Shown: positions 9,479-26,304 of the stretch, one piece after another | Layout: each line of letters starts with the position of its first letter | Numbering within the stretch: the first letter of the stretch is position 1 | Source: a bacterium | Lineage (GTDB): Bacteria > Patescibacteriota > Andersenbacteria > UBA10190 | Length of the DNA stretch: 64,000 nt | Direction: 5' to 3' | NCBI GenBank assembly: GCA_043811915.1 | Contig: JBDRMS010000001.1 | Span: 14,499-78,498 of the forward strand | Program-made: the position numbers and the translations under genes | The notes under the pieces: model-generated | What the model saw: the letters and a program-made list of their open reading frames with translations, nothing else | Databases searched by the model: none | Told to the model about the DNA's origin: nothing

Positions 9479-9516
9479 TCCTTTCTAAATCCGCGGCTAA
9501 CAGGACCGGCTTAGAG

Positions 9517-9589
9517 CAGGGGTATCAGGACTCGAACCTGAAACGGCGGTTTTGGAGACCGCAATGATGGCCAATTTCACCATACCCCC
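9517..9589 (-). tRNA. tRNA-Trp (anticodon CCA)
   Basis: Manual cloverleaf: acceptor GGGGGTA/TACCCCT, anticodon loop CTCCAAA, T-loop TTCGAGT; no encoded CCA. Confidence 0.85.
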
Positions 9590-11308: not shown

Positions 11309-11383
11309 TGGAGCCGACGGGGAGGATTGAACTCCCGACCTAATCCTTACCATGGATTCGCTCTGCCACTGAGCTACGTCGGC
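11309..11383 (-). tRNA. tRNA-Thr (anticodon GGT), CCA encoded
   Basis: Acceptor GCCGACG/CGTCGGC, anticodon loop ATGGTAA, T-loop TTCAATC, 3' CCA. Confidence 0.85.
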
Positions 11384-11399
11384 TGGCAATGGTGATAAA

Positions 11400-12539
11400 T
11401 TAACTTTTTGTTAGGAGATTGTCGAGCTCGGATTTTTTAGCAGCGACGTCTGGTTGAGCAAAATGGTCGCGAGCGGGCTTGAGAAGTTGGATTAATTCTT
11501 TGGCTGCGGCGGATTTGAGATCCATGGGATGGATGTCGCCGGCGGCGTAGGCCTGTTCAAGTTCCTGATATGAAGTAAATTCTGCTCCCCCGCCGTGTTC
11601 GGGCTTGCGCTCGATACAGAATGGCTTTTGCCTGTCCCAGAAAAGAATATGGCCTATCCAGTTGAGGATGGGATTAAATTTAATTTCTTTTTCCGGACAG
11701 AAAGCCTTGTTGATTTTGTGTTGAATTTCTTCTTTGGAATCGTGAACCCAAATAGCGGAATTGGGTTTCGACTTGCTCATTTTCATTTCCATAATGGCAT
11801 CACGCTGGTCTGTTCCTTCTGGAACGGGCCAGGTGACTGGCTTTTGCAAGCCTGTAAGGAGAGGATGATGTAGAGCTATTGGCTTGTCCTTATTGGTTAT
11901 TTTGTCACCAAAGAAAGTCTGTATGTTATCAGAGACATCTCTCATTATTACATGGGCCTTTCTTTGATCCATACCAGCATGCACAATATCAATATTTTGG
12001 TAAAAAATATCAGCTACCTGCATGGCAGGGTAGGATAATTTTGCCAAATCAATCTTTTCATCTTCTTTACGTCCCATGATTGTGATACTGCGTTTCATTC
12101 GTCCTAAGGTGACATTTTGACTTATTTTTACTACTAGGTCGCGATAGTACAACGTGTCTTTAGCATACCAGTCAGTGGCCAGGCGAAATTCCACCTGGTT
12201 AGGGTCAAGGCCAACGCATAGCATACTAGCCCTCATCGCCTCGGTAAAATAGCCTTTGCCTATTCTGGCGGCAGTTTCCCTTGTGCCATCAAGTTTATCG
12301 TTTATGGCCGTGTGCCAGTCGGCCAGCCAGACGGTACATTTGACGCCAAGATCAGTTAAGTCCTTCATCACCAGGGCGCTCATAATCCCCTGCCCCAGAT
12401 GAACATAACCGGAGATTTCGAAGCCGATGTAATGAGTTAGGATATCACTGGATGCAAGGCGCTGGCGAAATTCATCTTCGGTGATTATTTCGGCGCTATT
12501 TTTGACAAGGCGCTCAATAATTTTTTCCCGATCGGACAT
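11400..12539 (-). CDS. tyrS: Tyrosyl-tRNA synthetase, archaeal/eukaryotic type
   Basis: 379 aa from ATG 12539; HIGH-like THYIGFEISGYVHLGQG, KMSKS, YPAMQVADIFY, HPMDLKSAAAKELIQLLKPAR closely parallel M. jannaschii TyrRS (recalled). Confidence 0.85.
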   Translation of the reverse strand: MSDREKIIERLVKNSAEIITEDEFRQRLASSDILTHYIGFEISGYVHLGQGIMSALVMKDLTDLGVKCTVWLADWHTAINDKLDGTRETAARIGKGYFTEAMRASMLCVGLDPNQVEFRLATDWYAKDTLYYRDLVVKISQNVTLGRMKRSITIMGRKEDEKIDLAKLSYPAMQVADIFYQNIDIVHAGMDQRKAHVIMRDVSDNIQTFFGDKITNKDKPIALHHPLLTGLQKPVTWPVPEGTDQRDAIMEMKMSKSKPNSAIWVHDSKEEIQHKINKAFCPEKEIKFNPILNWIGHILFWDRQKPFCIERKPEHGGGAEFTSYQELEQAYAAGDIHPMDLKSAAAKELIQLLKPARDHFAQPDVAAKKSELDNLLTKS

Positions 12540-12603
12540 GTATGTAATATATTGGTTTATGGCAAGAAATAAAAATGCCCACTTGGAGTGGGCGGGAGAA
12601 GTT

Positions 12604-13035
12604 CTATGCGAGATCAAGATCAAACTGTACCTGACCCCAATCCTCTTCTGCGTCCGAGCCACGCACTCCGATGGGTACAACCAGAATTTCCTGGGGTGTG
12701 ACATTGGCAGCTTCAGCGGCGCTTAAGCGTACTAGTCTGTTGTTGTCGCCGATGGAAATGATTTTCCTTCGATAAACGGCTACATAGTGTCCACTCAAAC
12801 GTATAAACTCCTCGCTTTGCTGGGTCAAGTGACTGTGCAGCCAGGAAAGATCATCCTTTTTCCTTTCCTTGATTTGTTCATCTGGCGGTATAATTTCCAG
12901 GGCTGGTATCGAAGCGGCAGATGTCTTTTGCGGAGAGACAGTGATGTTGATCCGCAGACCAGATTCTTCGGCCAGGGCGATGAGAGCGGCACACAGCTTG
13001 ACCACCTTTTCAGTAGAGGATTTCTTTTTAGCCAC
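12604..13035 (-). CDS. Hypothetical protein with C-terminal DUF5678-like small domain
   Basis: GTG start with AAGGAG SD; C-terminal HYVAVYRRKIISIGDNNRL...EILVVPIG pattern. Confidence 0.4.
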   Translation of the reverse strand: MAKKKSSTEKVVKLCAALIALAEESGLRINITVSPQKTSAASIPALEIIPPDEQIKERKKDDLSWLHSHLTQQSEEFIRLSGHYVAVYRRKIISIGDNNRLVRLSAAEAANVTPQEILVVPIGVRGSDAEEDWGQVQFDLDLA

Positions 13036-13181
13036 GTCAATCTCCTTGAGTTAGGCAAGTTTGGGTATGGTAAATGAACAGTGAAACTGGAAGCGATACT
13101 AGCGTAGAAACCTGTTTTTGTCTAGTCGTTGCTTTTTCGGTATGCTTGTTGTATGGTGCTTTTTTGATAGACCATTGATAA

Positions 13182-13253
13182 GCCAGCTTAGCTCAGTGGC
13201 AGAGCAGGACTTTTGTAAAGTTCAGGCCGTCGGTTCGAATCCGACAGCTGGCT
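13182..13253 (+). tRNA. tRNA-Thr (anticodon TGT)
   Basis: Acceptor GCCAGCT/AGCTGGC, D-loop AGTGGCA, anticodon loop TTTGTAA, T-loop TTCGAAT. Confidence 0.85.
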
Positions 13254-13373
13254 CTGGAAGCAAATATATCCAGCGGTGGCCCCACGTCGCTAAAGCTATG
13301 CGGGGCAATTGCATTGGATTGATCTGAAGGCTAGTTTGTTCTTTCGTAGTTAAGATGCTAATCATTGTTTTTA

Positions 13374-13446
13374 CCAGCGGTGGCAGAACGGCTTATGCAA
13401 CGGTCTGTAAAACCGTACCAAGTAGGTTCAACTCCTACCCGCTGGA
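13374..13446 (+). tRNA. tRNA-Tyr (anticodon GTA), archaeal-like: C1:G72, 5-nt variable loop, A73
   Basis: Acceptor CCAGCGG/CCGCTGG, anticodon stem ACGGT/ACCGT with loop CTGTAAA, variable ACCAA, T-arm GTAGG-TTCAACT-CCTAC. Confidence 0.8.
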
Positions 13447-14943
13447 CCTAGATATTATTGCAGCTTCTACTTTTTCGCGTTTGGCTGAAACAGACGTAAA
13501 TATTTGCATGAGGAGGGAAATTTGGTGGTTCGACAAAGACTTGCCATCATATTCTATACCCGCAGGATAGAGAAAGTGTTCGAACCGCACCTTTTTACTT
13601 ACGTCTTTTAAATCTTCCCAACTTCTAAGAGGATTTTTTAGAGCTTCAAATGCGATTGTCACTATTTGCTCGAAGTCGTCTTGCTCTGACTGATGTTCGG
13701 ATTGTAATAACTCTAAAGCTTTAATCTTGCCTTTCAACTCTTTTACTTGAGCTATAAAGTCTTCATCAGTATACAAGTGCGGGTTTCGGCGTTTCTCTGT
13801 AAGTAAGTTAGCTTTTTCCTGCTGCAGATTGTCCAGCTCTCGACTCACGACCTTTTGGTCTTTACGATAGTCTTTCAGCCTCTCTTGCCAGCGCTCCAAT
13901 AGAATTTCTTTCATAATCGGGAACATGGATAGTTTTGGCTTAAGCTCTTTTAGCTTTCCTTTGAAGTCTGTTTCCATGTTGTCCTTCTTTGTGTTTTTAG
14001 CTAAAGGACATTTCGACGGATAACGATGGTGATAGTAGGGATGTCTTTCTCCGTTGCGGCTACGGGGGGAGGAAGCGGTTAGACGTTCACCGCAGAGTGA
14101 GCAATGGATTAAGCCGCGCAAAGGAAATAAGGGGTTAATAATGCTCCGGGTTGGCGAACTGTGAGCATTCTGCTCATTAATTGCCTGGCACCTATACCAT
14201 AAATCTTTGTTTACCAGTGGCTTGTGGTTGCCCCATATTTCCATGCCATAGGACTTCATTAAGCCCATGTAAAAAGAATTTTTGATGACGTGGTGGACAT
14301 TTTGCTCTCTGAGCTTACGTCCTTGTCTACTACGGTAGCCTCGACTGTTCATCCCATTAGCAATACGTTTGAAAGTCCAGCCATCAGCTCGTTTCTCAAA
14401 AGCCCATTTGATTATCGGAGACATCTCATTCAGAACCGCCCGGCTTCGCTTGTCTCTGCCCCGTACCATGTCATAGCCAGGTGGCGGGGTAGATACCCAA
14501 TATCCCTCACTGAATCGTGCCACCAGCCCATTACGGCACCGCTCACCGCGAATTAAGTTGTCGTATTCGGCAAACGCTCCTAACATGTTTCGCTGTAATT
14601 TACCGGCCGGAGTATCGTCCACATTCTCTGTGGCGGAACGCAGGCCAACTCCCGCCTCCTGAAGCGTCCTGATAGCGAAAAGCTGGTTCTCAAGGTTGCG
14701 GGATAGTCGGTCCACCTTGTAGACAACAATAGCCTTTATCTTGCTGTCCCCGACATATTCTAGGAGCTTTTGAAACTCCGGACGGTTTAGTGTCTTGGCT
14801 GACACCCCTTCCTCTCGAAACACTTTGGCTACGGTAAACCCTTCACGCCCAGCGTATTCCCGGCACTGTTTCTCTTGGGTGTCTAAGGATGTTCCATCTA
14901 CTTGTGACTGATCTGATACCCGGACATAAATAACACATTTCAT
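13435..14943 (-). CDS. Large serine recombinase (resolvase/invertase N-terminal domain + recombinase domain + zinc ribbon + coiled coil)
   Basis: VIYVRVSDQSQ...DGTSLDTQ catalytic-Ser N-terminus, VVYKVDRLSRN, CxxC zinc-ribbon (HCSLCGERL), C-terminal coiled-coil; 3' 12 nt overlap tRNA-Tyr. Confidence 0.85.
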   Translation of the reverse strand: MKCVIYVRVSDQSQVDGTSLDTQEKQCREYAGREGFTVAKVFREEGVSAKTLNRPEFQKLLEYVGDSKIKAIVVYKVDRLSRNLENQLFAIRTLQEAGVGLRSATENVDDTPAGKLQRNMLGAFAEYDNLIRGERCRNGLVARFSEGYWVSTPPPGYDMVRGRDKRSRAVLNEMSPIIKWAFEKRADGWTFKRIANGMNSRGYRSRQGRKLREQNVHHVIKNSFYMGLMKSYGMEIWGNHKPLVNKDLWYRCQAINEQNAHSSPTRSIINPLFPLRGLIHCSLCGERLTASSPRSRNGERHPYYHHRYPSKCPLAKNTKKDNMETDFKGKLKELKPKLSMFPIMKEILLERWQERLKDYRKDQKVVSRELDNLQQEKANLLTEKRRNPHLYTDEDFIAQVKELKGKIKALELLQSEHQSEQDDFEQIVTIAFEALKNPLRSWEDLKDVSKKVRFEHFLYPAGIEYDGKSLSNHQISLLMQIFTSVSAKREKVEAAIISRSSG

Positions 14944-14965
14944 ATTTTTATTATACTTTAATTTA

Positions 14966-16369
14966 CTAATGCGTCCTCACGTTCATCTTTTCCTCAGTTT
15001 GGCCAGTTTGGCCAGTTTTGAGGTCATGAACTGGTGTAACTGAGGAAACTGAGTCTTGGCTAAGTGTGTTATCTACCCCATATTGGACCGACAAACGCTT
15101 CACTTGTTTTGCATTCCAGGGAATAGCCGCAGAGCCATCTGATGTTTTCCAGTGAGCTGTAGCTTTTTCTCTAAGCCCTAGTGCAGTCAACATTGAGCCT
15201 ATTCTCTTGGGCGAATAGTGGTATTTTTCAGGGGTGCCATCGTTCATCTCCTCTGTAATTCTTTTCAACGATAACACACCATCAAATACTTCATTTTCTA
15301 GATGCAATAAAACTGCGACCAGTTTACCGGCTAGTGTTTCGGATCGGCGATACACTGCATCTTTCTCTAATGAGGAAATATATTCTAATGCCTTGACGTG
15401 TGACTCAGGCTTCATGGAAATGATTATTTGCATAAGAGGTCGCATAATATCACCTAATCGACGTTTAGTGGGTTTAGGTATATCTGGTAGTGGTGTATCC
15501 ATATTGGCTGCACGATAAGCTACTAGTCGCTCACGCATTGGTAGTCCATGCTCAGGTCGCACGTCGTCTTCAAATTCCCGCTCTGTATCCTGCATAATCA
15601 CAGTGACACATCTAGTGTCTAACACTTCATCAAGTTCTGTATTAGTAGCAATGACCGTCGGTCCAAATACTTGATAATACTTTGTGTCTTTAAAATCCCC
15701 ACGCTCAGGATTTAATACTCTCGGAACCTTGCCGCCTTTCTCAAAACGGTTCAAAAATAAATCAGTACAACCATTTTTTTCTACCACATCCAGGAATTTA
15801 CTTATATCAAAGAACAAACTTGCACTACATAGCTCAGCCATACGGAATATAAATGGCTCCCGGATGCTGACAATGTGCACTCCCCGATAAGCAGCGTAAA
15901 TCATGCCTTTGCCAGTTCTTGATTTTCCTCGCTCAGGCACAGCATAAAAAGCCATCTCTGGAGAATATTCAAATTCTTCTTGCCTATATGTGTGAATTGT
16001 CCATGCGGCAATTAGCAGATAAAGTGAATCAGGCAAGTCAGAAATATTGCGATGATACTCAACTACATCATCAAAAAGCTGCTCGTTAGTTTTTACTCCC
16101 AACTCTAGAAATTTACTGTATTCCTTTAGGACCTCCTCGTAGCGGGGTAGTTTCCATGGTAACTGGTCTATAGAAGGCGGATAGTGAATATTGTCACCAG
16201 CCCGATGGCTTTTTCTAACAATCAAATCCTGACCACTCTTAAGTAGGTAGTGTGGTTGATTTTTGTACTCGACAATATCTACTAGACCAGGAAGTACAGC
16301 CTTATATGACTTTTTATTTTGGCTAGAATGTTCTTTATCAACTAGCACTGCCTCTATGTCTTTATCCAT
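14966..16369 (-). CDS. P-loop NTPase, phage/plasmid replication-associated (primase-helicase/VapE-like), putative
   Basis: 467 aa; Walker A-like AVPERGKS; GGAGGA SD; translationally coupled to the upstream gene (8-nt overlap). Confidence 0.45.
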   Translation of the reverse strand: MDKDIEAVLVDKEHSSQNKKSYKAVLPGLVDIVEYKNQPHYLLKSGQDLIVRKSHRAGDNIHYPPSIDQLPWKLPRYEEVLKEYSKFLELGVKTNEQLFDDVVEYHRNISDLPDSLYLLIAAWTIHTYRQEEFEYSPEMAFYAVPERGKSRTGKGMIYAAYRGVHIVSIREPFIFRMAELCSASLFFDISKFLDVVEKNGCTDLFLNRFEKGGKVPRVLNPERGDFKDTKYYQVFGPTVIATNTELDEVLDTRCVTVIMQDTEREFEDDVRPEHGLPMRERLVAYRAANMDTPLPDIPKPTKRRLGDIMRPLMQIIISMKPESHVKALEYISSLEKDAVYRRSETLAGKLVAVLLHLENEVFDGVLSLKRITEEMNDGTPEKYHYSPKRIGSMLTALGLREKATAHWKTSDGSAAIPWNAKQVKRLSVQYGVDNTLSQDSVSSVTPVHDLKTGQTGQTEEKMNVRTH

Positions 16370-16835
16370 ATATTTCCTCCAATTTTCTTATTAGTCTTTT
16401 GCACCTATAGCGCTTGTATTTCTCAGCTTCCAACATCCGCTCATATAAGCCCCTACCAAAGCCGGATAAGTGCTTTGACTTAGTTAGAATTTTTTGAGTA
16501 TTGCTTGACCACTTCTTTGATAGCCAGTAGTCATTTGCAATGTGTTTTTGGGCTGCCTGAATCAGTGCCCTAGGCATTGCGTCAGGAGCTGGCCAACAGA
16601 CACGGGCTTTGTAGTCTTTGGTAATTCCTACAGTGATATCCGGGTGTATTTGCATAGCGATTGACACAGCACTCCAGTTGTTAGTTTTCTCGCAGCGTTT
16701 CTCAATAAGACCGGTTATGTACCTACACATACAACGATAATTGTCTTGTTTGTGTTTGGTTGCCCTGGTATTATTGTTTGTATAAGAGTGATTCCTAGTC
16801 GGGGTCACTTTTTTTGTTATTGAACTATTGCTCAT
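16362..16835 (-). CDS. Hypothetical basic, Cys-containing protein
   Basis: 157 aa, Lys/Arg-rich, CMCRY...C; overlaps downstream gene by 8 nt. Confidence 0.35.
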   Translation of the reverse strand: MSNSSITKKVTPTRNHSYTNNNTRATKHKQDNYRCMCRYITGLIEKRCEKTNNWSAVSIAMQIHPDITVGITKDYKARVCWPAPDAMPRALIQAAQKHIANDYWLSKKWSSNTQKILTKSKHLSGFGRGLYERMLEAEKYKRYRCKRLIRKLEEIYG

Positions 16836-16980
16836 GTGGTGTTTTCTCTCTTTCTTTCCAAGTAGATATCAATTACCAAATCAGCCAACTCATAGCACTG
16901 ACTAAGTAGGCTCGACAAGTCTTGGTCACTTATTTGTTGCTCCTCGCTGGGAAGCATAGCCCGGGCTTTTTCCAGAGTTA

Positions 16981-17235
16981 TCATAGACCCCGCTCTCTCA
17001 AACGGCTAAAAACTATGTCCTTGCATGTCCTTATGGCATCGCTGAAGTCCTTCGCGTTTACAATTGCTCTGCGAGTGTAGTAATCATTAGCAAGTGCCTT
17101 GCATGGGATGGCTTGGAATATAAAAACCACATCATGCCCATCCTTTTCAGTACCAAGAAAAGACTCGCTGTGCTTGGAATACAAAAAACTAGACTCGTAG
17201 AGATCCCTAGTTTTGTGGGTAGTAGTAATTTCCAT
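16981..17235 (-). CDS. Hypothetical protein
   Basis: 84-aa ORF in same orientation as neighbours; no recognisable motif. Confidence 0.3.
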   Translation of the reverse strand: MEITTTHKTRDLYESSFLYSKHSESFLGTEKDGHDVVFIFQAIPCKALANDYYTRRAIVNAKDFSDAIRTCKDIVFSRLRERGL

Positions 17236-17313
17236 ACCAAAAGTATCCTTAAGTTAAGGATTGCTTGATTATGCCTAGCTGTGAACGACACTAACTGATT
17301 TTACTTAGTGTTC

Positions 17314-18024
17314 CTATGACCGTTTGTGTTTTTTACGTGTACGATTGCGAATTTTTGAAACAATATCTGGATCGCACGCTTCTTGTGGGAATTCTTCTCT
17401 GGCAACTCGTGCAATTTCCTCATTAGTCACTTCTGGGTTCTCTCGGTCTATTTTTAATATATATGCGTTACGTTTAGCTCGAGGACTCTTCCTTGTCTTT
17501 TTCCAGTGCTTTGGTGGCATGAATCGTTGCCAGCCCATTATCAGCTTAAGATGTACTGAAATACAGTCTTTAATCTCATTACTTGAGGCGTCAGCTGCGA
17601 CTTGGATTTGGATCGGGAAGTTTTCGAGGTGAGATTTTAAACGATAATCATCGTCTTTCATATGTTGCGCGGCGATTTCATTTGCATATTCCATATAAGG
17701 AAATTCAACAATACACGCATCAAATATTGAATAATCCTTAACGTGACCATCCTGTATGAATTGAATTACTGGGCCATTAATCGGTAGTCCGTGCTCTTTA
17801 GCAAGTTCATAGATAATCTTCTCAATCTTATTGGTTATGCCCTTTTGTTCGATTATGAGTTTTTTAATGCCATTGACCCTGTCTATAAAGTCTGGATCGT
17901 TCATTAATTCCTCAAAATAGAGGCGTAGGTGTTCTTTCCTTTTTGATTCTCGAAAAACTGATTCCATAATCTCAATCTCAATAATCTTTACTTTACTATC
18001 ACCCCCTATTCGGGTGGTATGCAA
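17314..18024 (-). CDS. Hypothetical protein with basic C-terminal HTH-like region
   Basis: 236 aa; C-terminus KRNAYILKIDRENPEVTNEEIARVAREEF...KIRNRTRKKHKRS. Confidence 0.35.
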   Translation of the reverse strand: MHTTRIGGDSKVKIIEIEIMESVFRESKRKEHLRLYFEELMNDPDFIDRVNGIKKLIIEQKGITNKIEKIIYELAKEHGLPINGPVIQFIQDGHVKDYSIFDACIVEFPYMEYANEIAAQHMKDDDYRLKSHLENFPIQIQVAADASSNEIKDCISVHLKLIMGWQRFMPPKHWKKTRKSPRAKRNAYILKIDRENPEVTNEEIARVAREEFPQEACDPDIVSKIRNRTRKKHKRS

Positions 18025-18112
18025 ATAAATTGGACAAATTAGCTTTAATGGGGTACAACGTAGGCATAATTCACTAGCCTAAACTACGCCTTGGCGCAGC
18101 ATGGCATTAAAT

Positions 18113-18153
18113 CCTCAAGGATACTGAACCCATCGTTCAGCACTTCCTTGAGG
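18113..18153. repeat. Nested inverted repeat (outer CCTCAAGGA/TCCTTGAGG, inner CTGAAC-ccatc-GTTCAG)
   Basis: Perfect 9-bp outer stem and 6-bp inner stem read directly in the non-coding gap 18025-18248. Confidence 0.5.
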
Positions 18154-18248
18154 TCATATAGGGAAACCTATGTGGGTAATCGAAAGATTATCGCTGGCGG
18201 TGGGCTTTGTGTTTGCTGGCAGCCCGTAACTACCTTAATGCTCTAACT

Positions 18249-18725
18249 ATGATGATTTATAAGAATTTAATAAAAATAAGTTCAAGCATATTGTTGTCTC
18301 TTATTTTCATCGTTGCCTTAACGTTTGTGGCTGACGCAGGTCAAGGTTGTTGCTCTTGGCATGGCGGGCAGAGCTACTGTGATACATCGTCGGGCCGATG
18401 GGTATGCAATGATGGCACCTATAGTCCTAGTTGTATGTGCGCTGTTCCAAGACCAGTACCGCAGCCAATTGCTCAAGAAGCCTGTTCACCCTATTTATTT
18501 TGTCCCCCAAACTATCCATATACTTTACTGAATGGCGGAATGATATATAACTACCAAGTTCCGTATGTAGTTGAGTTTGTCTTTAACGATGTTTACGGAC
18601 ATAAACCAAACCAGGGAGAAAGTGCTTATTGGAAGCGTAGGTTGCGTACAGATAAAAGTACTGTCAGTGCCTTATTAAATACGATGCGCTACTGGAAAAG
18701 CAAAAAAAATTCACCGGTGTTATAA
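18249..18725 (+). CDS. Secreted Cys-rich protein with C-terminal DVYGHK...YWK.R.RTDK module
   Basis: ATG 18249 (ORF-track start is a TTG); signal peptide MMIYKNLIKISSSILLSLIFIVALTFVADA; about 9 Cys; C-terminal module shared with next gene. Confidence 0.5.
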   Translation: MMIYKNLIKISSSILLSLIFIVALTFVADAGQGCCSWHGGQSYCDTSSGRWVCNDGTYSPSCMCAVPRPVPQPIAQEACSPYLFCPPNYPYTLLNGGMIYNYQVPYVVEFVFNDVYGHKPNQGESAYWKRRLRTDKSTVSALLNTMRYWKSKKNSPVL

Positions 18726-18741
18726 TCTAATATAAATTGCT

Positions 18742-19458
18742 ATGAAAAAACTACTTATTATCGTTTTGGCAGGTTTGCTAATAGCCCCCTCGGCATATGC
18801 CGAGTTTAGAGTGCTGCCATTTTCTTATTCTACTCCATATATTCCTTATAACCCTACTCCAAGAATAGCACCCAGCGTAACGCTACCCCTTATTCCACCT
18901 CCTATTACAACAAAACCAGTCGCAAGAGTACCCGTAACTCCAGTGGACGTTACTCCTTTCGATGAAGCTAGGGCTAAGCTCTTTGCAGACTGGGCTGAAA
19001 CAAACAGAGTAAGTGCGGAACGTTGGGCTGAAAAAGATAGATTAGCGAAAGAACAGCAGGCTGCAAAAGTAGTTCCTGAAGTACCCAATTACTTAGTCCC
19101 TTGGGTAATAGGGCAGATATTCAGCGATGTATATGGACATAAAATAACTCCTTCAGAAAGCACCTACTGGAAAAATCGAATGCGTACGGATAAACCCACC
19201 ATTGCAAGTCTTCAAGGCGCAATGTATTGGCATAAATCTCATGGCTCAACTGGTGTAACTGTCTCTCAAGTTGCGGGAGCTACAATGAGCTCTACTGATT
19301 TAGTTGGCCAAATTAACTCTTTGTTCCGTTCTGTCTACGAACGTAACCCCTCTATATCTGAAAACAAATACTGGCTAACACGTATTGCAGATAAGCCTAC
19401 AGAGGAAATGATGCTTGGTGCAATGATATTTCATAAGTTAAATAACATTAGTCACTAA
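18742..19458 (+). CDS. Secreted Pro-rich protein with two copies of a ~45-aa module (DUF4214-like)
   Basis: Signal peptide MKKLLIIVLAGLLIAPSAYA; repeats IFSDVYGHKITPSESTYWKNRMRTDKPTIASLQGAMYWHKS and INSLFRSVYERNPSISENKYWLTRIADKPTEEMMLGAMIFHKL. Confidence 0.55.
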   Translation: MKKLLIIVLAGLLIAPSAYAEFRVLPFSYSTPYIPYNPTPRIAPSVTLPLIPPPITTKPVARVPVTPVDVTPFDEARAKLFADWAETNRVSAERWAEKDRLAKEQQAAKVVPEVPNYLVPWVIGQIFSDVYGHKITPSESTYWKNRMRTDKPTIASLQGAMYWHKSHGSTGVTVSQVAGATMSSTDLVGQINSLFRSVYERNPSISENKYWLTRIADKPTEEMMLGAMIFHKLNNISH

Positions 19459-19469
19459 GGGCAACAAAA

Positions 19470-19886
19470 TCACTTCTTAACATTTTGTTGCATCGCATTA
19501 AAAATATTTACTTGTGAAGACCCTTTATCAATGCCCAATAACCGCCCAAAAACAAGAAAATACTTAAATCTTGTAACGTAGTCCGGCACTTCCCTGTAAT
19601 AAACACTCTTTGTTGCTCCAAGCCCGTCTGAGAGAGCCCTCATATATGTTTCCGCAGTAAACCCCCCAACGGCCAAAAGGTCAGAAACACTAACTTTTGC
19701 TAACTGACGAGCACCTAATACCCTCGCAGACTGTTTTGTTACATGAGGATGAAGTTTTATATACGCTTTGCTGGCATTGCCTCCATTCTCAAACCACTCA
19801 TTAAAAAACAAGGCCAGCGCCTTATCATCTCGAAAGACTTCTGATAGGGTCCCCTGTGTTGGTTCTATCGCCTGAATATTGCCCAT
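19470..19886 (-). CDS. Phage terminase small subunit-like protein (Terminase_2-type HTH)
   Basis: ATG 19886 (ORF-track start is TTG); FFNEWFENGGNASKAYIKLHPHVTKQSARVLGARQL matches TerS N-terminal consensus (F..Y...GNat.A...AGYs.ktA...a.rLL); no large terminase nearby. Confidence 0.45.
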   Translation of the reverse strand: MGNIQAIEPTQGTLSEVFRDDKALALFFNEWFENGGNASKAYIKLHPHVTKQSARVLGARQLAKVSVSDLLAVGGFTAETYMRALSDGLGATKSVYYREVPDYVTRFKYFLVFGRLLGIDKGSSQVNIFNAMQQNVKK

Positions 19887-20129
19887 GTTTATATTTTGTC
19901 GAACATGAGGCTTGGTTTTCAACTCAGAGTCGCGTACCAGGTGTTCCAAACTTTAAGAAAAATCACAGCCGACTTACAACAACCACGCCAAAAGCACATA
20001 CTAAATAGTCATATTCCTATTCCAACAATCTCTTATCTGGTAACATAAACTTTCCTATCGCCGCCTCACAAGCAGCTTCATAGTTTTAATAGTTTTGACA
20101 CCAAGTGTTAAATCGTTACCACTATCCTC

Positions 20130-20333
20130 TTAACTGTTTTTGGCGTCCTCTTTCATTTGATTAGTTCCTTTACGCCAAAGATAGATGCCATTTATCACGA
20201 TCAATAAATAAATCAATGCACCGAAGATACTCCCTGAATCACTTTCGAAGGCACCAATAACACACCCAACAATCCCCAAGCCTCCAAGTACCACCATTGG
20301 CAACCCTACAATACGTCTCCAATTAGATTTCAT
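20130..20333 (-). CDS. Small membrane protein (2 TM)
   Basis: 67 aa, two hydrophobic helices, basic C-terminus. Confidence 0.3.
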   Translation of the reverse strand: MKSNWRRIVGLPMVVLGGLGIVGCVIGAFESDSGSIFGALIYLLIVINGIYLWRKGTNQMKEDAKNS

Positions 20334-20491
20334 GACATTACGGTAGCAGTCGCTTGATCAAGTTGCAACGATTACAAGCACAGCCGGGCTATAAGCCGCT
20401 GTTTGGGTTCGCCTTACAAGCAATCCATCTAACCCGTGTCGTTATTATCATTGCCTAGGATGTTTTCTAACTGCTAGACTTAATAAGGTTA

Positions 20492-21253
20492 ATGTCTATT
20501 GAAGATCACGTAGAAATCAAGCTTGATACCCTGAACGCAATATCTGCGCACGAGCATAAGCTAGTCGAAGCTGCACCTGAAAAGTATGGAGCTTATTGGG
20601 AGAATGCTGAGAAAAGTGTTATGGCGATTCAAACCTTTTCAGTGAAATATGAGCGAGAGGCTCTGGTCTCAATGTTTCTCCTGGTGGCAATGAATCAGTA
20701 TGCTTCCCTTGCTTTGTTGTCGGCTGCGAGAAAACATGCGGCGCAATCAGCGCTATGTTTTAGGTTTATGCTTGAAGCCGCAGTGCTTTCAGCGTATTCG
20801 CTTTTTGACGACCAAATGTCGCAGTTGTCTAAACCAGGTACCGCCCAATCTATAGTGGAGAAATTTATGAATCTTAAAGAATCGAAGAATATCAGAAAAA
20901 AAGCACATGCTTGGATTGAAGAAAGTTTTCCAACCCACTCTTCGCGTATCGAGGAGCTAAAAACAAAATATATAAACAAGATATATGCCCATGTAAATAT
21001 TCCTAACGTGATTTCTGCTGTACGCTCAGCTGAGAAGATTTCTGGTTCTTTGTTTTTCGACGCGGAGGATAGTTACGCAATAAAGCGATCTATGTGGGCT
21101 ATAACAGATGGCATTCTTTGCTCAATTGATTTAGTCTCAGCCTCATTCGCAAAAAGCAGTAAGGGGAAACTTGACCCGCGCGCACTTAGTAGGTTGTACA
21201 AAATCCAACAAGTCCACCTAAAGCTAAAAACGGAGTTGAAGAAAGGGCGATAA
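20492..21253 (+). CDS. Hypothetical all-alpha protein (unknown cargo)
   Basis: 253 aa ORF with ATG start; no motif recognised. Confidence 0.4.
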   Translation: MSIEDHVEIKLDTLNAISAHEHKLVEAAPEKYGAYWENAEKSVMAIQTFSVKYEREALVSMFLLVAMNQYASLALLSAARKHAAQSALCFRFMLEAAVLSAYSLFDDQMSQLSKPGTAQSIVEKFMNLKESKNIRKKAHAWIEESFPTHSSRIEELKTKYINKIYAHVNIPNVISAVRSAEKISGSLFFDAEDSYAIKRSMWAITDGILCSIDLVSASFAKSSKGKLDPRALSRLYKIQQVHLKLKTELKKGR

Positions 21254-21258
21254 GATGG

Positions 21259-21282
21259 TTTCAAACTCTTCCTACCTGCTGG
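21259..21282. repeat. Degenerate copy of tRNA-Tyr 3' end (candidate attR)
   Basis: TTCAAACTCTTCCTACCTGCTGG vs tRNA 3' GGTTCAACTCCTACCCGCTGG: 12/14 identical over the 3'-most 14 nt, partial match further 5' with indels. Confidence 0.3.
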
Positions 21283-21424
21283 GGTTGTAAGTAAAGCTAC
21301 GCGGGCTGAAATATCGCCGCCAGCGTCCTAACTTCTCCAAACAATTGGTCTATTATGCTATCTTTAGCGGTTCGACGTGATAATATAAGGGTGGACATTT
21401 TAAGGATTACAAATAATGGTGGCT

Positions 21425-21475
21425 GACCCCATTAACTGCCCCATTAACTGACCCATTAACTGACCCCATTAACCC
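21425..21475. repeat. Tandem repeat, 12-13 bp unit GACCCCATTAACT x4
   Basis: GACCCCATTAACT GCCCCATTAACT GACCCATTAACT GACCCCATTAACC read directly; 55-105 bp upstream of ORF 21531. Confidence 0.8.
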
Positions 21476-21530
21476 TAAAAACCGTACGGCAGTTGACAAG
21501 ATAAGGGGTTGTGTTGTATGTTCAGCGGTT

Positions 21531-21887
21531 ATGATTGAGAAACGTTCAATAGTACTGACCATCGTTGTTTTAGCCATGTTGTTTGCAGGTATGCTTTTGT
21601 ACTTGTTTACTTCCGGCGGGGGCTTGCCGCAAGCAAAAATTGCCATAAATCCTGAAGAGCCACAAGCAATGGAAGCAACGGACGCGCCGGAAGCGGAGAT
21701 AACGGCCGGGGTGACGGATGTGAGCGTAGTGAATGAAGCGAAGGATGAGGCTCTTGATGTATCACCAACTGCGGCCACGGGGGTAAAAGGCTATGTGATC
21801 ATGGCCGCGGGGCTGGCCGTGCTGATGGGGCTGATTGGTTTGATTACTGCCTGGCGGAAGTCTTCAGCTCGGCAAGTTGAGCTGTAA
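21531..21887 (+). CDS. Small acidic surface protein with N-terminal TM/signal and C-terminal sortase-like sorting signal (motif-hydrophobic-basic tail)
   Basis: C-terminus ...SPTAATGVKGYVIMAAGLAVLMGLIGLITAWRKSSARQVEL; competing minus-strand ORF 21407..21778 is low complexity. Confidence 0.4.
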   Translation: MIEKRSIVLTIVVLAMLFAGMLLYLFTSGGGLPQAKIAINPEEPQAMEATDAPEAEITAGVTDVSVVNEAKDEALDVSPTAATGVKGYVIMAAGLAVLMGLIGLITAWRKSSARQVEL

Positions 21888-22758
21888 GGGAATGTTGCAG
21901 AGGCAGGTTGTCCATGCGGCGAGCAATAGATAGTAGTCGTTTAATAATGACGACGTTGCTCGGGTCGGCGTCGTGAGCCTTTTTGAGTGCTTCCATGGCT
22001 TTGGTTAGCCTACCGGCCTTGTAGTTGGCGTAGCCCAGAGCGGCATAACACCCCTTGGTGTTTGGCTTAAGGCTAACTACTTGCTCAAACACTTCAGAGG
22101 CTTCACTCCAGTTATGGCGGCCCAGAGCGGCTTTGCCCAGCAGCATGTAGGCGTGCGTGTTCCTGGGATGCTTAGCCAGAAATGGAACCAGTGTTTTTTC
22201 GGCGCTTTGGTAACGACAAGCGCTTAGCTGCTGGCGGGCTGTATCGAGAGAAGTAGCTTTTGGTTTTTTGAAAAAAATCTTTTTGGCCAGGGTGGGTTTG
22301 GCGCTTGGTGTCAGGCTCACCGGCGGGGAGGAGACGGGCTTGGCAGAGACCGGTTTTTCTATCATGCGTAAGACCGGCCTGGTTTCTTTTGATGTAATTT
22401 TCTGGCTAATCTTCACCTGGCCGGCTTTCTCTTTAGCTTTATTGAGTGTGCGGCGAATTTTGGCCAGGTATTTGGTGGGTGGCTTGATAGTGGGAAGATT
22501 GCGCAGGGCAGCTATTTTTTCTTTAATTTGAAGTAGCAGCTGCTGGAGCGAGTGTCCAGCAACAGATAACCGATTTTTTATTACGTGAACACTTTTTTGA
22601 CTCGGTCCAAGTAACACGGCGAAGTCGCGAGTACTGGTGGTGCGGACGGCGGCGGCGAGATTTTGCCGATGCAACCTGGTCACTACTCGAGAAACAACGT
22701 AAATAGTCCCTCCGAGGGAGGCGAAGAATACCAGAGGAGGAAGGACATTGTATAGCAT
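21844..22758 (-). CDS. Membrane-anchored TPR-repeat protein
   Basis: ATG 22758 (GTG at 22764 alternative); N-terminal TM; C-terminal TPR-like helices (AYMLLGKAALGRHNWSEASEVFEQVVSLKPNTKGCYAALGYANYKAGRLTKAMEALKKA). Confidence 0.55.
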   Translation of the reverse strand: MLYNVLPPLVFFASLGGTIYVVSRVVTRLHRQNLAAAVRTTSTRDFAVLLGPSQKSVHVIKNRLSVAGHSLQQLLLQIKEKIAALRNLPTIKPPTKYLAKIRRTLNKAKEKAGQVKISQKITSKETRPVLRMIEKPVSAKPVSSPPVSLTPSAKPTLAKKIFFKKPKATSLDTARQQLSACRYQSAEKTLVPFLAKHPRNTHAYMLLGKAALGRHNWSEASEVFEQVVSLKPNTKGCYAALGYANYKAGRLTKAMEALKKAHDADPSNVVIIKRLLSIARRMDNLPLQHSLTAQLAELKTSARQ

Positions 22759-22839
22759 GCGCACTTGTTCACTGTCATCTTATCAAGAGTGAACTGCTCC
22801 GCCAAGAGGTTTAAGCGCGACTTATTAACAATTTTTCCC

Positions 22840-23424
22840 CTATATGGCTATACGAGTGAATTCGCCGATACTGATATTTTCGCCAAGTTCCTGAATAGCC
22901 TCTTTGATTAGATCTGCAACAGTTTTATTAGGATCTTTGACGAAGGGCTGGGTAAGCAAGGCTCTTTCGGAGCGGAACTTATTGAGTTTGCCGGCAACCA
23001 TTTTGATTTGAATCTCCTTCGGTTTGCCCGACTCTCTGGCTTGTTCTTCGGCGATGGCTTGTTCTTCGGCGATAGCTTGTTCAGAAATGTCATCGGGGCT
23101 AACGGCCACCGGGTCCATGGCGGCAATGTGCAGGGCAATACTATGAGCTAACTCCTGAAATTTACTGTTGCGGGCAACAAAGTCTGTTTCACACAAGAGT
23201 GTGACCAAAACGGCAATTTTACCGTTGCCGTGAGTATAGGAGGCGATTGTTCCTTCGCGGGTATCACGCTCGGCTTTTTTGGCAGCGCCGGCTATGCCCT
23301 TTTTTCGCAGGACAACAATAGCCTGTTCAATGTCGCCGTTGGTTTCCTGCAAGGCTTTCTGGCAGTCAACAATGCCGCAGCCGGTGCGGTTTCTTAATTC
23401 CTTAACTTGTTTTGGTCTAATCAT
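22840..23424 (-). CDS. tsf: Elongation factor Ts
   Basis: N-terminal UBA-like MIRPKQVKELRNRTGCGIVDCQKALQETNGDIEQAI; short-form EF-Ts. Confidence 0.9.
   Translation of the reverse strand: MIRPKQVKELRNRTGCGIVDCQKALQETNGDIEQAIVVLRKKGIAGAAKKAERDTREGTIASYTHGNGKIAVLVTLLCETDFVARNSKFQELAHSIALHIAAMDPVAVSPDDISEQAIAEEQAIAEEQARESGKPKEIQIKMVAGKLNKFRSERALLTQPFVKDPNKTVADLIKEAIQELGENISIGEFTRIAI
23040..23075. repeat. In-frame 18-bp tandem duplication inside tsf (encodes QAIAEE x2)
   Basis: CTTGTTCTTCGGCGATGG / CTTGTTCTTCGGCGATAG adjacent copies. Confidence 0.6.
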
Positions 23425-24128
23425 TTTGATGGGCGATTTTTAAGGATAGCTTTAGTTAACGTACCGACAATAAGATCTATGGAACGAATGGCGTCGTCAT
23501 TGGCCGGAATGGGATAATCGAGCAGTTCAGGGTCGGTGTTGGTGTCGGTAATACCAACAATCGGAATACCCACACGTTTAGCTTCACGCACGGCTAGTTT
23601 TTCATCATGAGCGCCAACGACGATAACGACGGCTGGCAGCTTGCGCAGATTTTTTATTCCTTCAAGAACCTCCTCCAGGCGTTCGATTTCCTTGGCATGG
23701 ACAGAGCGTTCTTTTTTGGTCATTTTTTCCATGGCCGGTGTTTCGGTCATGCCCTTGAGCTCATCCAGTTTTTCGATGCTTTTGAGGACGGTAGAAAAAT
23801 TAGTGAGCGTGCCGCCAAGCCAGCGCTGAGTAACATAGGGCTGGCCCACGCTTTCAGCGTACTTGCGGACAATGTCACGGGCCTGGCGCTTGGTGCCGAC
23901 AAAGAGAATTTCTTTATTAGCATCCTTGCTGACTTGATGAACAAATTCTACCGCTCTGGCCAGGGCGGTGTGGGTTTTTTCCAGGTCAATAATGGCCATG
24001 CGGTTGCGAAGCATGAAGACATAGCTGTCCATACGAGGGTTTTTCTTACTGCGTTCGTGACCGAAGTGAACCCCGGCTTCCAGCATGTCTATTAGCTTGG
24101 GAATTTGAACTGGTGTATTAGTGGCCAT
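23421..24128 (-). CDS. rpsB: 30S ribosomal protein S2
   Basis: MATNTPVQIPKLIDMLEAGVHFGHERSKKNPRM matches S2 N-terminus (AGVHFGHQTRRWNPKM); start at second in-frame ATG. Confidence 0.9.
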   Translation of the reverse strand: MATNTPVQIPKLIDMLEAGVHFGHERSKKNPRMDSYVFMLRNRMAIIDLEKTHTALARAVEFVHQVSKDANKEILFVGTKRQARDIVRKYAESVGQPYVTQRWLGGTLTNFSTVLKSIEKLDELKGMTETPAMEKMTKKERSVHAKEIERLEEVLEGIKNLRKLPAVVIVVGAHDEKLAVREAKRVGIPIVGITDTNTDPELLDYPIPANDDAIRSIDLIVGTLTKAILKNRPSK

Positions 24129-24191
24129 AATGAGGCATACCATAACCTAACTACTTGTAAAAAACAACTCTATTTACTATAATCAGCAGGC

Positions 24192-24467
24192 ATGAAAGCA
24201 AAAATACATCCTAAATACCACAAAAAGGCAAAAGCAGCGTGTTCCTGCGGCGTTAAGTTTGAAGTCGGCTCAACGGAAGAGAAGCTGGAAGTTGAAGTGT
24301 GCTCCAGTTGTCATCCTTTTTACACAGGCAAGCAAAAACTGGCTGACGTAGCAGGAAGAATAGACAAGTTCAAAAAACGCTTGTCTCAAGCCGAGAAGGC
24401 TGATAAAAATAAGAAGATAAAGAAAGAGCGAAAAAAAACCAGGAAGGATACTACCGTGAAGCTTTAG
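24192..24467 (+). CDS. rpmE: 50S ribosomal protein L31
   Basis: [28 protein letters not shown]...[13 protein letters not shown] matches L31 (CxxC...CxxCHPF). Confidence 0.9.
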
Positions 24468-24470
24468 CTG

Positions 24471-25550
24471 ATGAAGTTGCCGAGCGCTAAACAACTGGAA
24501 CAGGAGCTGGACCAGCTGGCGCAGCAGATGGCTGATCCGGCAGTAGCTAGGCAACCGGCTCGAATGCGAGAGCTGGCGAACGAGCATCGCCAAAAAAAAG
24601 AACTGTTTTTGTTAGTGGAGAAGCGTGAGGTGGTATTGAAAGAATTGGACGAGCTTGCTGAACTGGTAAAGTCGGAGCAGGCAGAGCTGCAAGATCTGGC
24701 ATGGCAGGATAAAGAACGGCTGGAGTTGGAGATGGCCAGACTCAATGAACAAATTGAGATAACCTTGACCCCGAGAGATCCGCGTGACGCACGTGACGTG
24801 ATGCTGGAAATACGGGCTGGAGCTGGCGGAGAAGAGGCGGCATTATTCGCCGCTGAATTATTTAGAGCATATAGCCGATATGCTGAAATCAGAGGCTGGC
24901 AAGTGCACACTATTAGCTCGACTGCCAGCGAGCAAGGCGGCTATAAGGAGATCGTGGCGGAAGTAAACGCTGCCCCACTTCGCCAAGGCTTCGCGGGGCA
25001 AACTTCAGGCCCTTTCGAGGTCCTGAAGTTTGAGAGGGGTGTACAACGGGTGCAGCGGGTGCCAGAGACAGAAAAGATGGGACGTATTCACACTTCCACG
25101 GTGACGGTGGCAGTGTTACCGCAGGCGAAGGAAGTAGATATTGAAGTGCGACCAGAGGATTTGCGTATTGATACTTACCGCGCCAGCGGCGCGGGCGGCC
25201 AGCATGTAAACAAGACCAGTTCAGCCGTGCGTATCACGCACTTGCCCACCAATACTGTGGTGGCGGTACAGGACGAGAGAAGCCAGCACAAAAATAGGTC
25301 CAAGGCTATGAGTGTACTGCGGACACGGTTATTGGACGCGCAGGAACGAGCGAGACATAGCGAGGAAGCCAGTGAGCGAAAGGCTCAAGTGGGTACGGGT
25401 GACAGGTCGGAAAAAATTCGAACTTACAACTACCCGCAGGATCGGATAACTGATCACAGAATAAAGAAGTCCTGGAGTAATATTTCGAAAGTTATGGAAG
25501 GGAACTTTGATAATATTTTTAATGATCTCAAAGAGAATAAGAAAGAATAA
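24471..25550 (+). CDS. prfA: Peptide chain release factor 1
   Basis: GGQ motif ([11 protein letters not shown]), P-x-T tripeptide (RVPETE), RF1-like N-terminus. Confidence 0.9.
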
Positions 25551-25557
25551 AGCCCAA

Positions 25558-26304
25558 ATGCCAAAATCCAAATGTTCAATCAAATCCCAAATCCAAAGGG
25601 CGCGACTACAGCTTGCTCAAGTCTCCGATGCGCCTGAATTGGATGCGACGTGGCTGATGTTGCATGTGCTGGGTCGAGATGAGTCGAGCTGGTTGCAGAT
25701 ACATGGGGAGAATAAATTAAACCCTGAAGAAGAGAGACAATATGCGGAATTGGTTAAACGAAGAAACACCGGGGAGCCACTGGCGTATATTCTGGGTTAT
25801 TGGGAGTTTTATGGACGCAAATTTTTGGTAAATAAAGATGTCCTAATCCCCCGCCCTTCTACCGAAAACCTGGTTGATGCCGTGTTGGCAAAATTACATA
25901 AAGGAATGGTTGTCGCCGACGTGGGAACAGGCAGCGGCTGCGTCATAATTACGCTCGCTTTGGAGCTCGCCAATTTTCAATTTTCAATTTTCAATTTTCA
26001 ATTGCTTGCGACTGACATATCCGACGCAGCATTAAAAATAGCAAAAGAGAATGCCGAATTGCATGGCGTGGCCGATAAAATTGAATTTATTCGAGGAGAT
26101 ATGATGGAAGCTCTAAAAAATATAAAGATAGATTTGATAGTGAGTAACCCGCCGTACGTCCCGACAAAAGAAATATTACCGTTTGAGCCGGCACTGGCGC
26201 TGAATGGCGGCAAGGATGGACAGTATTTTATCAGGCAAATAAAAGCCAGCGGCATTCCGGCGATAGTGGAAGGCATGGGCGGCAAAATTAATTTTTACAC
26301 TTAA
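25558..26304 (+). CDS. prmC: Release factor glutamine N5-methyltransferase
   Basis: LIVSNPPYVP (NPPY) motif, DVGTGSGCV SAM-binding motif; follows prfA. Confidence 0.85.
   Translation: MPKSKCSIKSQIQRARLQLAQVSDAPELDATWLMLHVLGRDESSWLQIHGENKLNPEEERQYAELVKRRNTGEPLAYILGYWEFYGRKFLVNKDVLIPRPSTENLVDAVLAKLHKGMVVADVGTGSGCVIITLALELANFQFSIFNFQLLATDISDAALKIAKENAELHGVADKIEFIRGDMMEALKNIKIDLIVSNPPYVPTKEILPFEPALALNGGKDGQYFIRQIKASGIPAIVEGMGGKINFYT
25971..26005. repeat. Heptanucleotide tandem repeat CAATTTT x4 plus partial fifth, inside prmC CDS
   Basis: caattttcaattttcaattttcaattttcaattgc; encodes ANFQFSIFNFQL insert between SAM motif and ATDIS. Confidence 0.8.

Follow-up and report, generated by a model that had tools for sequence, protein, structure and literature searches.

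An archaeal-type tyrosyl-tRNA synthetase beside a C1:G72 tRNA-Tyr without a long variable arm in an Andersenbacteria-like bacterium

The recognition of tRNA-Tyr by tyrosyl-tRNA synthetase (TyrRS) has long been held to form a hard barrier between Bacteria, where the tRNA carries G1:C72 and a long variable arm (V-arm), and Archaea and Eukarya, where it carries C1:G72 without that arm. The same difference underlies the orthogonal Methanocaldococcus jannaschii pair employed in expanding the genetic code. The closest described systems that cross it come from candidate phyla radiation (CPR) bacteria: C1-G72 tRNA-Tyr together with archaea/eukarya-type TyrRS was reported in Parcubacteria, Microgenomates, Dojkabacteria and Katanobacteria (Mukai, Reynolds, Crnkovic and Soll 2017, Life 7:8, PMC5370408). 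According to the text of that paper, many CPR C1-G72 tRNA-Tyr keep the V-arm and some are without it, several independent transfers from archaea are inferred, and the legend of the TyrRS tree places Andersenbacteria among five major bacterial groups. A full-text search returned no further paper on archaeal Tyr identity in CPR bacteria in the literature collection covered. Here we describe a TyrRS gene (tyrS) and its neighbouring tRNA-Tyr gene on a stretch of DNA (64,000 nucleotides of contig JBDRMS010000001.1, assembly GCA_043811915.1; hereafter the 64-kb window, or the window) from a bacterium of or near Candidatus Andersenbacteria. As judged from sequence, the locus very probably belongs to a CPR bacterium with archaeal-type Tyr identity, in which a transferred TyrRS would act on a remodelled cognate tRNA-Tyr, that is, to the system of Mukai et al. 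2017.

The genes that make up this system and its immediate setting are listed below.

11400-12539, minus strand: tyrS, encoding an archaeal/eukaryal-type TyrRS of 379 aa (with the stop codon counted in the coordinates)
13374-13446, plus strand: tRNA-Tyr(GUA), class I (Rfam RF00005, 56.5 bits; placed by ARAGORN at 13374-13448, plus strand)
13182-13254, plus strand: tRNA-Thr(UGU), on the same strand 120 nt upstream of tRNA-Tyr and its tandem partner in a thrU-tyrU-like arrangement (ARAGORN and Rfam)
11309-11383, minus strand: tRNA-Thr(GGU), thrT-like, directly downstream of tyrS (ARAGORN and Rfam)

The list of open reading frames (ORFs) gives tyrS as 11400-12704 (minus strand, 434 aa), starting from a far-upstream ATG. 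The true start is the ATG at 12539 (MSDREKIIERL...), which yields a protein of 379 aa in agreement with the N-termini of all relatives; this product is 100% identical over 379 aa to a deposited protein, 'MAG: tyrosine--tRNA ligase [bacterium]' (P0001). The enzyme is of the archaeal/eukaryal type and not a bacterial TyrS/TyrZ, as a first-pass annotation made from the sequence had proposed, and all four motifs quoted there are present in the translation. It scored 377.7 bits on NCBIfam NF006330 (PRK08560; cut-off 220), with a match that runs from profile position 3 to 334 of 342. On TIGR00234, the model for bacterial tyrS, it reached 76.2 bits, under the cut-off of 113.8. The best matches among solved structures in the PDB were archaeal (2cyc, 1e-103; 7fg6, 5e-90; 2cya, 5e-76), after which came the eukaryal TyrRS and that of M. 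jannaschii; archaeal/eukaryal matches spanned 1e-103 to 1e-18, and the bacterial TyrRS chains 6bqy and 1h3e appeared at ~5e-6 and ~4e-4. A Pfam scan (E ≤ 0.01) found the class Ic catalytic domain (PF00579) alone, at residues 34-354, and no S4-like C-terminal domain in the 379-aa protein; the enzyme lacks the domain with which bacterial TyrRS binds the long variable arm. The bacterial outgroup TyrRS proteins (400-418 aa) match TIGR00234 end to end.

To place the enzyme among its homologues, a scan was made with one genome per species, which gave 37 loci. Andersenbacteria and other Patescibacteria metagenome-assembled genomes (MAGs) contributed 16 loci, at 60-70% identity. A further 16 loci encode archaeal-type TyrRS at 31-48% identity, 15 of them in archaeal MAGs (Pacearchaeota, Woesearchaeota, Nanoarchaeota, Methanomicrobia, Cenarchaeum, Methanosarcinales, ANME-1 and Altiarchaeales) and one (L026) in a MAG labelled Gammaproteobacteria. 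The other five encode bacterial-type TyrRS, and the two of these that were scanned (L033 and L034) scored 321 and 417 bits on TIGR00234. A neighbour-joining tree (39 sequences, 343 columns, 200 bootstraps) was rooted on genuine bacterial TyrRS, which split off at 100% bootstrap. The 15 bacterial-host TyrRS sequences formed a single clade (100%), grouped with 2cyc, 7fg6, a Methanomicrobia MAG and Pacearchaeota and Woesearchaeota MAGs at 83%. The window TyrRS is 46.6% identical to 2cyc and 46-47% to the two DPANN sequences; its identity to bacterial TyrRS is 21-23%. It does not fall inside bacterial TyrS, and its bacterial-host clade is nested in archaeal TyrRS, far from the bacterial enzymes; phylogeny was one of the checks that the first-pass annotation had put forward. 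The tree agrees with one archaeal-to-bacterial tyrS transfer in the ancestor of the bacterial clade: family scores and branching alike indicate that tyrS came from an archaeal enzyme by lateral transfer into that ancestor.

In the M. jannaschii enzyme, the tyrosine pocket is formed by Y32, Q155, D158 and Q173, and Asp286 reads G34. The residues aligned with these four pocket positions are conserved in the window TyrRS and in all 15 clade members, as is D340, which aligns with Asp286 (15/15); the KMSKS motif, at residues 253-257 in the window TyrRS, is likewise present in all 15. The M. jannaschii reference sequence used here is identical to PDB 1j1u over all 306 residues. By alignment, R150, R193 and K194 of the window TyrRS correspond to M. 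jannaschii R132, R174 and K175 and are invariant in 15/15 clade members, while genuine bacterial TyrRS has S or E in place of Arg132 and F in place of Lys175. In the M. jannaschii complex, Arg132, Arg174 and Lys175 contact C1 and G72 (Tsunoda et al. 2007, PMC1934993). The Arg/Arg/Lys trio and the Asp aligned with M. jannaschii Asp286 are thus retained; by analogy with the M. jannaschii and yeast complexes, the trio would read C1 and G72.

The tRNA genes were called with ARAGORN and the Rfam model RF00005. The window holds seven of them, all matched by the Rfam tRNA model, and one of the seven is a tRNA-Tyr(GTA); its earlier description as the only tRNA-Tyr stands for the 64-kb window and extends no further. 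Read directly, the gene is CCAGCGG-UG-GCAG-AACGGCUU-AUGC-A-ACGGU-CUGUAAA-ACCGU-ACCAA-GUAGG-UUCAACU-CCUAC-CCGCUGG-A. Both this reading and the Rfam alignment give C1:G72, A73, the anticodon GUA and a variable loop (ACCAA) of 5 nt, confirming the class I tRNA described before. The D arm, GGCAGAACGGCUUAUGC, has three Watson-Crick pairs plus G13/A22, and CCA is not encoded (the 3' sequence continues with ACC and then T). The archaeal/eukaryal tRNA-Tyr identity set tabulated in PMC9976931 consists of A73, C1-G72 and G34 U35 A36, in keeping with the assignment of these elements in the first-pass annotation. The window tRNA-Tyr has the whole set and lacks the long variable arm, features that point to it as the cognate substrate of the archaeal-type TyrRS.

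The two genes are closely linked and divergently oriented: tRNA-Tyr lies on the opposite strand, upstream of tyrS and 835 nt from its start codon. The separation of two kb given previously counts from the far end of the gene and needs to be corrected. A tRNA-Tyr(GTA) is found 0.1-1.7 kb from tyrS on the opposite strand in 14/14 related loci that extend upstream of tyrS. In 13 of these 14 the tRNA has CC..GG acceptor ends (C1:G72, C2:G71), A73 and a variable loop of 4-5 nt, the gene of locus L004 being aberrant. The relatives' genes are 71-73 nt long without CCA, and all 14 intact genes of the clade, the window's included, are without a V-arm. In a covariation alignment of 13 genes (the window's and those of 12 relatives), cloverleaf pairing held in 100% of cells, compensatory changes occurred in 10 of 20 pairs, and the observed covariation was not reached by any shuffle. 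Pairs 1:72 (C:G) and 2:71 were invariant, and pairs 3:70, 5:68 and 7:66 varied. This pattern indicates that the tRNA-Tyr genes of the clade are functional, that selection acts on them and that their first pair is fixed as C:G. Outside the clade, the 16 loci that encode an archaeal-type TyrRS showed no tRNA-Tyr near tyrS.

The orientation of the neighbouring tRNA-Thr(UGU) is less constant. It is inverted relative to tRNA-Tyr in L001, L002, L003, L004, L006, L007 and L014, and not inverted in the window, L005 and L008-L013. As roughly every second relative shows the inversion, the tandem of Thr and Tyr genes is not universal in the clade; the proximity of tyrS and tRNA-Tyr is.

The setting of the tRNA-Tyr gene bears on its origin. 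In Escherichia coli the cluster runs thrU-tyrU-glyT-thrT-tufB, and the succession of Thr(UGU)-Tyr(GUA) and then Thr(GGU) in the window matches it; the Thr(TGT)-Tyr tandem, rightly called bacterial-style in the first-pass annotation, is the same as E. coli thrU-tyrU. The Andersenbacteria locus looks like the old thrU-tyrU-thrT cluster with tyrS inserted and with partial inversion. The ancestral cluster's other remnant is tRNA-Thr(GGU), which keeps its position in 13 of the 16 related loci.

The D arm of the clade tRNA-Tyr, GCCGARCGGYYRAGGC or GCAGARCGGCUKAUGC, has three Watson-Crick pairs with G13 opposite A22. Comparators were sought with a pattern built from the clade D arm and anticodon arm, with a long variable region forced. 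The search returned four metagenomic tRNA-Tyr genes, all with G1:C72 and with V-arms of 13-17 nt, matches that arise partly by construction. The D arm of L005 and that of the V-arm-bearing comparator L040 are identical at 19/19 positions. The corresponding arm of M. jannaschii tRNA-Tyr is GUUCAGCCUGGUAGAAC (PMC6337575, Table 1). D-arm identity is 11.7/20 to E. coli tyrU and 10.4/20 to M. jannaschii, values that do not discriminate by themselves. The four comparators (L039-L042), whose D arm is nearly the same as that of the clade, lie on metagenome contigs, in dense tRNA arrays (Tyr-His-Leu-Leu...).

Taken with the position in the bacterial tandem, this class II-like D arm favours remodelling in place over archaeal import. 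The tRNA-Tyr is most likely the original bacterial class II gene: still in its Thr(UGU)-Tyr tandem, the resident gene would have been remodelled by a flip of the 1:72 pair and deletion of the V-arm. In the alternative scenario, tRNA-Tyr was imported from the archaeal donor along with tyrS and replaced the resident gene, with no remodelling of a class II gene. It would account for the presence of every archaeal hallmark (C1:G72, A73 and a short variable loop) and for the physical linkage to tyrS throughout the clade, and the text of PMC5370408 speaks of cognate tRNA genes of 'bacterial or archaeal origins'. We nevertheless regard it as unlikely: the gene is placed in a bacterial tandem, none of the 16 archaeal-type tyrS loci outside the clade has a tRNA-Tyr nearby, and the D arm (GCCGARCGG...AGGC type, with a 3-bp stem and G13/A22) matches that of V-arm-containing G1:C72 bacterial tRNA-Tyr and differs from that of M. 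jannaschii. V-arm-containing C1-G72 intermediates in other CPR groups, mentioned in the text of PMC5370408, also speak against import.

It was further suggested in the first-pass annotation that enzyme and substrate had been replaced together. Within the window this holds, with an archaeal-type pair present and no bacterial one: a six-frame hmmsearch of the 64 kb, run with a TyrRS profile that combined archaeal and bacterial sequences, turned up tyrS and neither another class Ic synthetase nor another TyrRS (next match, E = 0.35). Beyond the window, we infer the genome-wide loss of the bacterial pair from the occupation of the canonical tRNA-Tyr locus by the C1:G72 gene. The pair described here could instead be an accessory system, comparable to the TrpRS-A/tRNA-Trp(A73) operons, with a bacterial TyrS/TyrZ and a G1:C72 long-V-arm tRNA-Tyr elsewhere in the genome. 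Such coexistence is reported for Trp in Candidatus Beckwithbacteria (Mukai et al., PMC5370408), a bacterial TyrRS is kept in other Patescibacteria (L033), and our inspection covers 64 kb of the genome. This possibility is nonetheless highly improbable in our view. The canonical thrU-tyrU position is held by the C1:G72 gene, and the same gene lies by tyrS in 13 relatives. In addition to the lack of a second synthetase or tRNA-Tyr in the window, no second tRNA-Tyr was found around the tyrS of relatives, in up to 21 kb per locus, and where the text of PMC5370408 mentions a coexisting bacterial pair it does so for Trp only, not for Tyr.

That an archaeal (DPANN) fragment was mis-assembled or mis-binned into a bacterial contig deserves mention, since CPR and DPANN organisms co-occur and their bins may cross-contaminate (a caveat raised in the text of PMC5370408), but it has a negligible probability and is effectively refuted by synteny: on a single contig, tyrS is enclosed by tRNA genes and housekeeping genes of bacterial type, an arrangement seen again in at least 14 independent assemblies from different studies. 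GC content is also even across tyrS.

The interpretation of a transferred TyrRS serving a tRNA remodelled in place has to be weighed against several points. The search for a second tyrS or tRNA-Tyr was made within 64 kb of the genome. The in-place remodelling draws on position and D-arm resemblance only, in a comparison with M. jannaschii as the one archaeal representative, and the likeness to the V-arm comparators is partly by construction, as they were found with a clade-derived pattern. Finally, the neighbour-joining tree, with 343 columns and sparse archaeal sampling, is too light in sampling and method for the donor to be named. With these points in mind, we tentatively propose a fuller course of events, to which we assign slightly less than an even chance. 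The archaeal tyrS would have landed in the ancestral thrU-tyrU-thrT cluster and stayed within 0.1-1.7 kb of tRNA-Tyr clade-wide despite local inversions and insertions, the two forming an 'identity module', and the tRNA would represent a natural conversion from class II to class I in which the class II-type D arm was kept.

Further features of the window concern the host and the surroundings of tyrS.

9517-9589, minus strand (ARAGORN 9516-9589): tRNA-Trp(CCA), with G73, the bacterial-type discriminator (identity table of PMC9976931)
50814-50885, plus strand: tRNA-Met, with a C1xA72 mismatch of the bacterial initiator type
12604-13035, minus strand: hypothetical ORF of 143 aa, between tRNA-Thr(UGU) and tyrS, on the tyrS strand and directly upstream of tyrS

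The host belongs to the Patescibacteria/CPR and falls in or close to Candidatus Andersenbacteria, itself part of the Parcubacteria group of Patescibacteria. In the window, the archaeal identity is limited to the Tyr system, tRNA-Trp and initiator tRNA-Met being of bacterial type. On one side the locus is flanked by bacterial genes for YceG/MltG, a nucleotidyl transferase and a sortase, and on the other by those for EF-Ts, ribosomal protein S2, a release factor (PCRF/RF-1 domains) and PrmC. The gene order reads prmC-prfA / rpsB-tsf-TPR / tRNA-Tyr / tRNA-Thr(UGU) / tyrS / tRNA-Thr(GGU) / beta-propeller-like ORF / tRNA-Trp / ... / sortase / CAP / NTP-transferase / yceG. It is common to the window and L008 (a 698-kb contig) over ~20 kb, and parts of it are common with L009 (an Andersenbacteria MAG), L013 and others; since the order is found across Andersenbacteria and Patescibacteria MAGs, the locus is not an assembly chimera. 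TyrRS identities of 60-76% tie the window to these MAGs as well.

The 143-aa ORF has homologues at the same position in seven relatives' loci (31-60% identity) and four database homologues. It gave no Pfam or PHROG match, and a Foldseek search of its AlphaFold2 model (predicted local distance difference test score, pLDDT, 62) against the PDB gave nothing below E = 1. A terminator-like hairpin (12577-12593) lies between this ORF and tyrS. By analogy with ORF1 of TrpRS-A it was considered as a partner of TyrRS and rejected, given the lack of a family or fold match and the intervening hairpin; no connection with the Tyr system was seen. Upstream of tyrS there is neither a T-box nor any other known leader, as in the stretch from tyrS to tRNA-Tyr and close to it no Rfam family apart from tRNA attained its gathering score.

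On its other side, tRNA-Tyr abuts an insert, which comprises the following features.

13435-14943, minus strand: large serine integrase (Pfam Resolvase, Recombinase and Zn_ribbon_recom; phrog_95 'integrase', 5e-90)
13435-21843, ~8.4 kb: the insert as a whole, from the 3' end of tRNA-Tyr to the TPR gene at 21844, with the integrase and seven ORFs without convincing family match
18076-18192, plus strand: LOOT RNA (RF03000), a full-length match that scores 78.1 bits (gathering score 46.4)
21423-21472: iteron-like tandem repeats CTGACCCCATTAA (3-4 copies, spaced 12-13 nt apart), towards the far end of the insert and just before the TPR gene

The last codons of the integrase overlap the 3' acceptor strand of tRNA-Tyr. 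The insert has a GC content of 0.40-0.45 against ~0.48 in its surroundings, its GC skew is reversed, and no counterpart was found in the relatives' loci. This ~8.4-kb strain-specific insert probably represents a mobile element that has integrated, or what is left of a prophage. A direct-repeat search allowing up to 3 mismatches found no attachment (att) repeat of the tRNA-Tyr 3' end; the repeats in 13000-26000 are two- or three-copy, 14-25 nt long, and none involves the tRNA end. The iteron-like repeats could be a replication or recombination site. The LOOT RNA lies 15 nt upstream of an ORF on the same strand (18207-18725), and this orphan motif is thus located in a probable CPR mobile element.

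In L004 (positions 1-610; Patescibacteria MAG JACZRJ010000138.1), the 5' part of tRNA-Tyr is near-identical to that of the window, and the 3' acceptor strand diverges just after the T stem (CCTAC, then CGATAGTACCA), so that clean pairing of the acceptor stem is lost. Next comes an array of five other tRNA genes (Ala, Thr, Glu, Pro, Leu). The divergence and the array, at the same spot as the window insert, suggest a second, different insertion and a recurrent insertion site at the tRNA-Tyr 3' end.

The window TyrRS can be compared with three kinds of known enzyme. With the Pyrococcus horikoshii-type archaeal TyrRS (PDB 2cyc) it is colinear over residues 5-362 at 46.6% identity (1e-103). It shares 37.9% identity with the M. 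jannaschii enzyme (PDB 1j1u) and keeps the pocket residues, KMSKS, the C1:G72 readers and the counterpart of D286; it differs in that M. jannaschii F261 is replaced by His in 13/15 clade members. Unlike these archaeal enzymes it comes from a bacterial host, and some members of its clade (355-aa forms) have lost the insertion before KMSKS. With bacterial TyrRS (TyrS/TyrZ, TIGR00234) it has in common the class Ic Rossmann-fold core (PF00579), the amino acid and the anticodon, and its tRNA lies in a thrU-tyrU-type context; it is set apart by its sub-threshold TIGR00234 score (76.2 against 113.8 bits), the lack of an S4-like domain and an identity of 21-23%. The bacterial class II tRNA-Tyr has G1:C72 and a long variable arm, whereas that of the window has C1:G72 and no such arm.

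The closest likeness is to the system of Mukai et al. 2017, whose text likewise describes an archaea/eukarya-type TyrRS with C1-G72 tRNA-Tyr in CPR bacteria, names Andersenbacteria and includes variants without the V-arm. As the same system was reported there in Andersenbacteria, the finding made in the window is correct but already known for this lineage. Many of the CPR genes described in that text keep the V-arm, in contrast to 14/14 intact genes of the window clade that are without it. The text of PMC5370408, apart from its figures, describes no linkage of tyrS and tRNA-Tyr in a Thr-Tyr-Thr cluster ('adjacent' does not occur and 'operon' is used only for Trp), makes no D-arm argument and does not mention an integrase element abutting tRNA-Tyr. 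Natural bacteria with switched Tyr systems show that the identity barrier can be crossed, a point made in 2017 of which the window is one more example; the detail added by this locus, namely the linkage of the enzyme and tRNA genes and a tRNA body of bacterial appearance, could help to order the events of such a switch.

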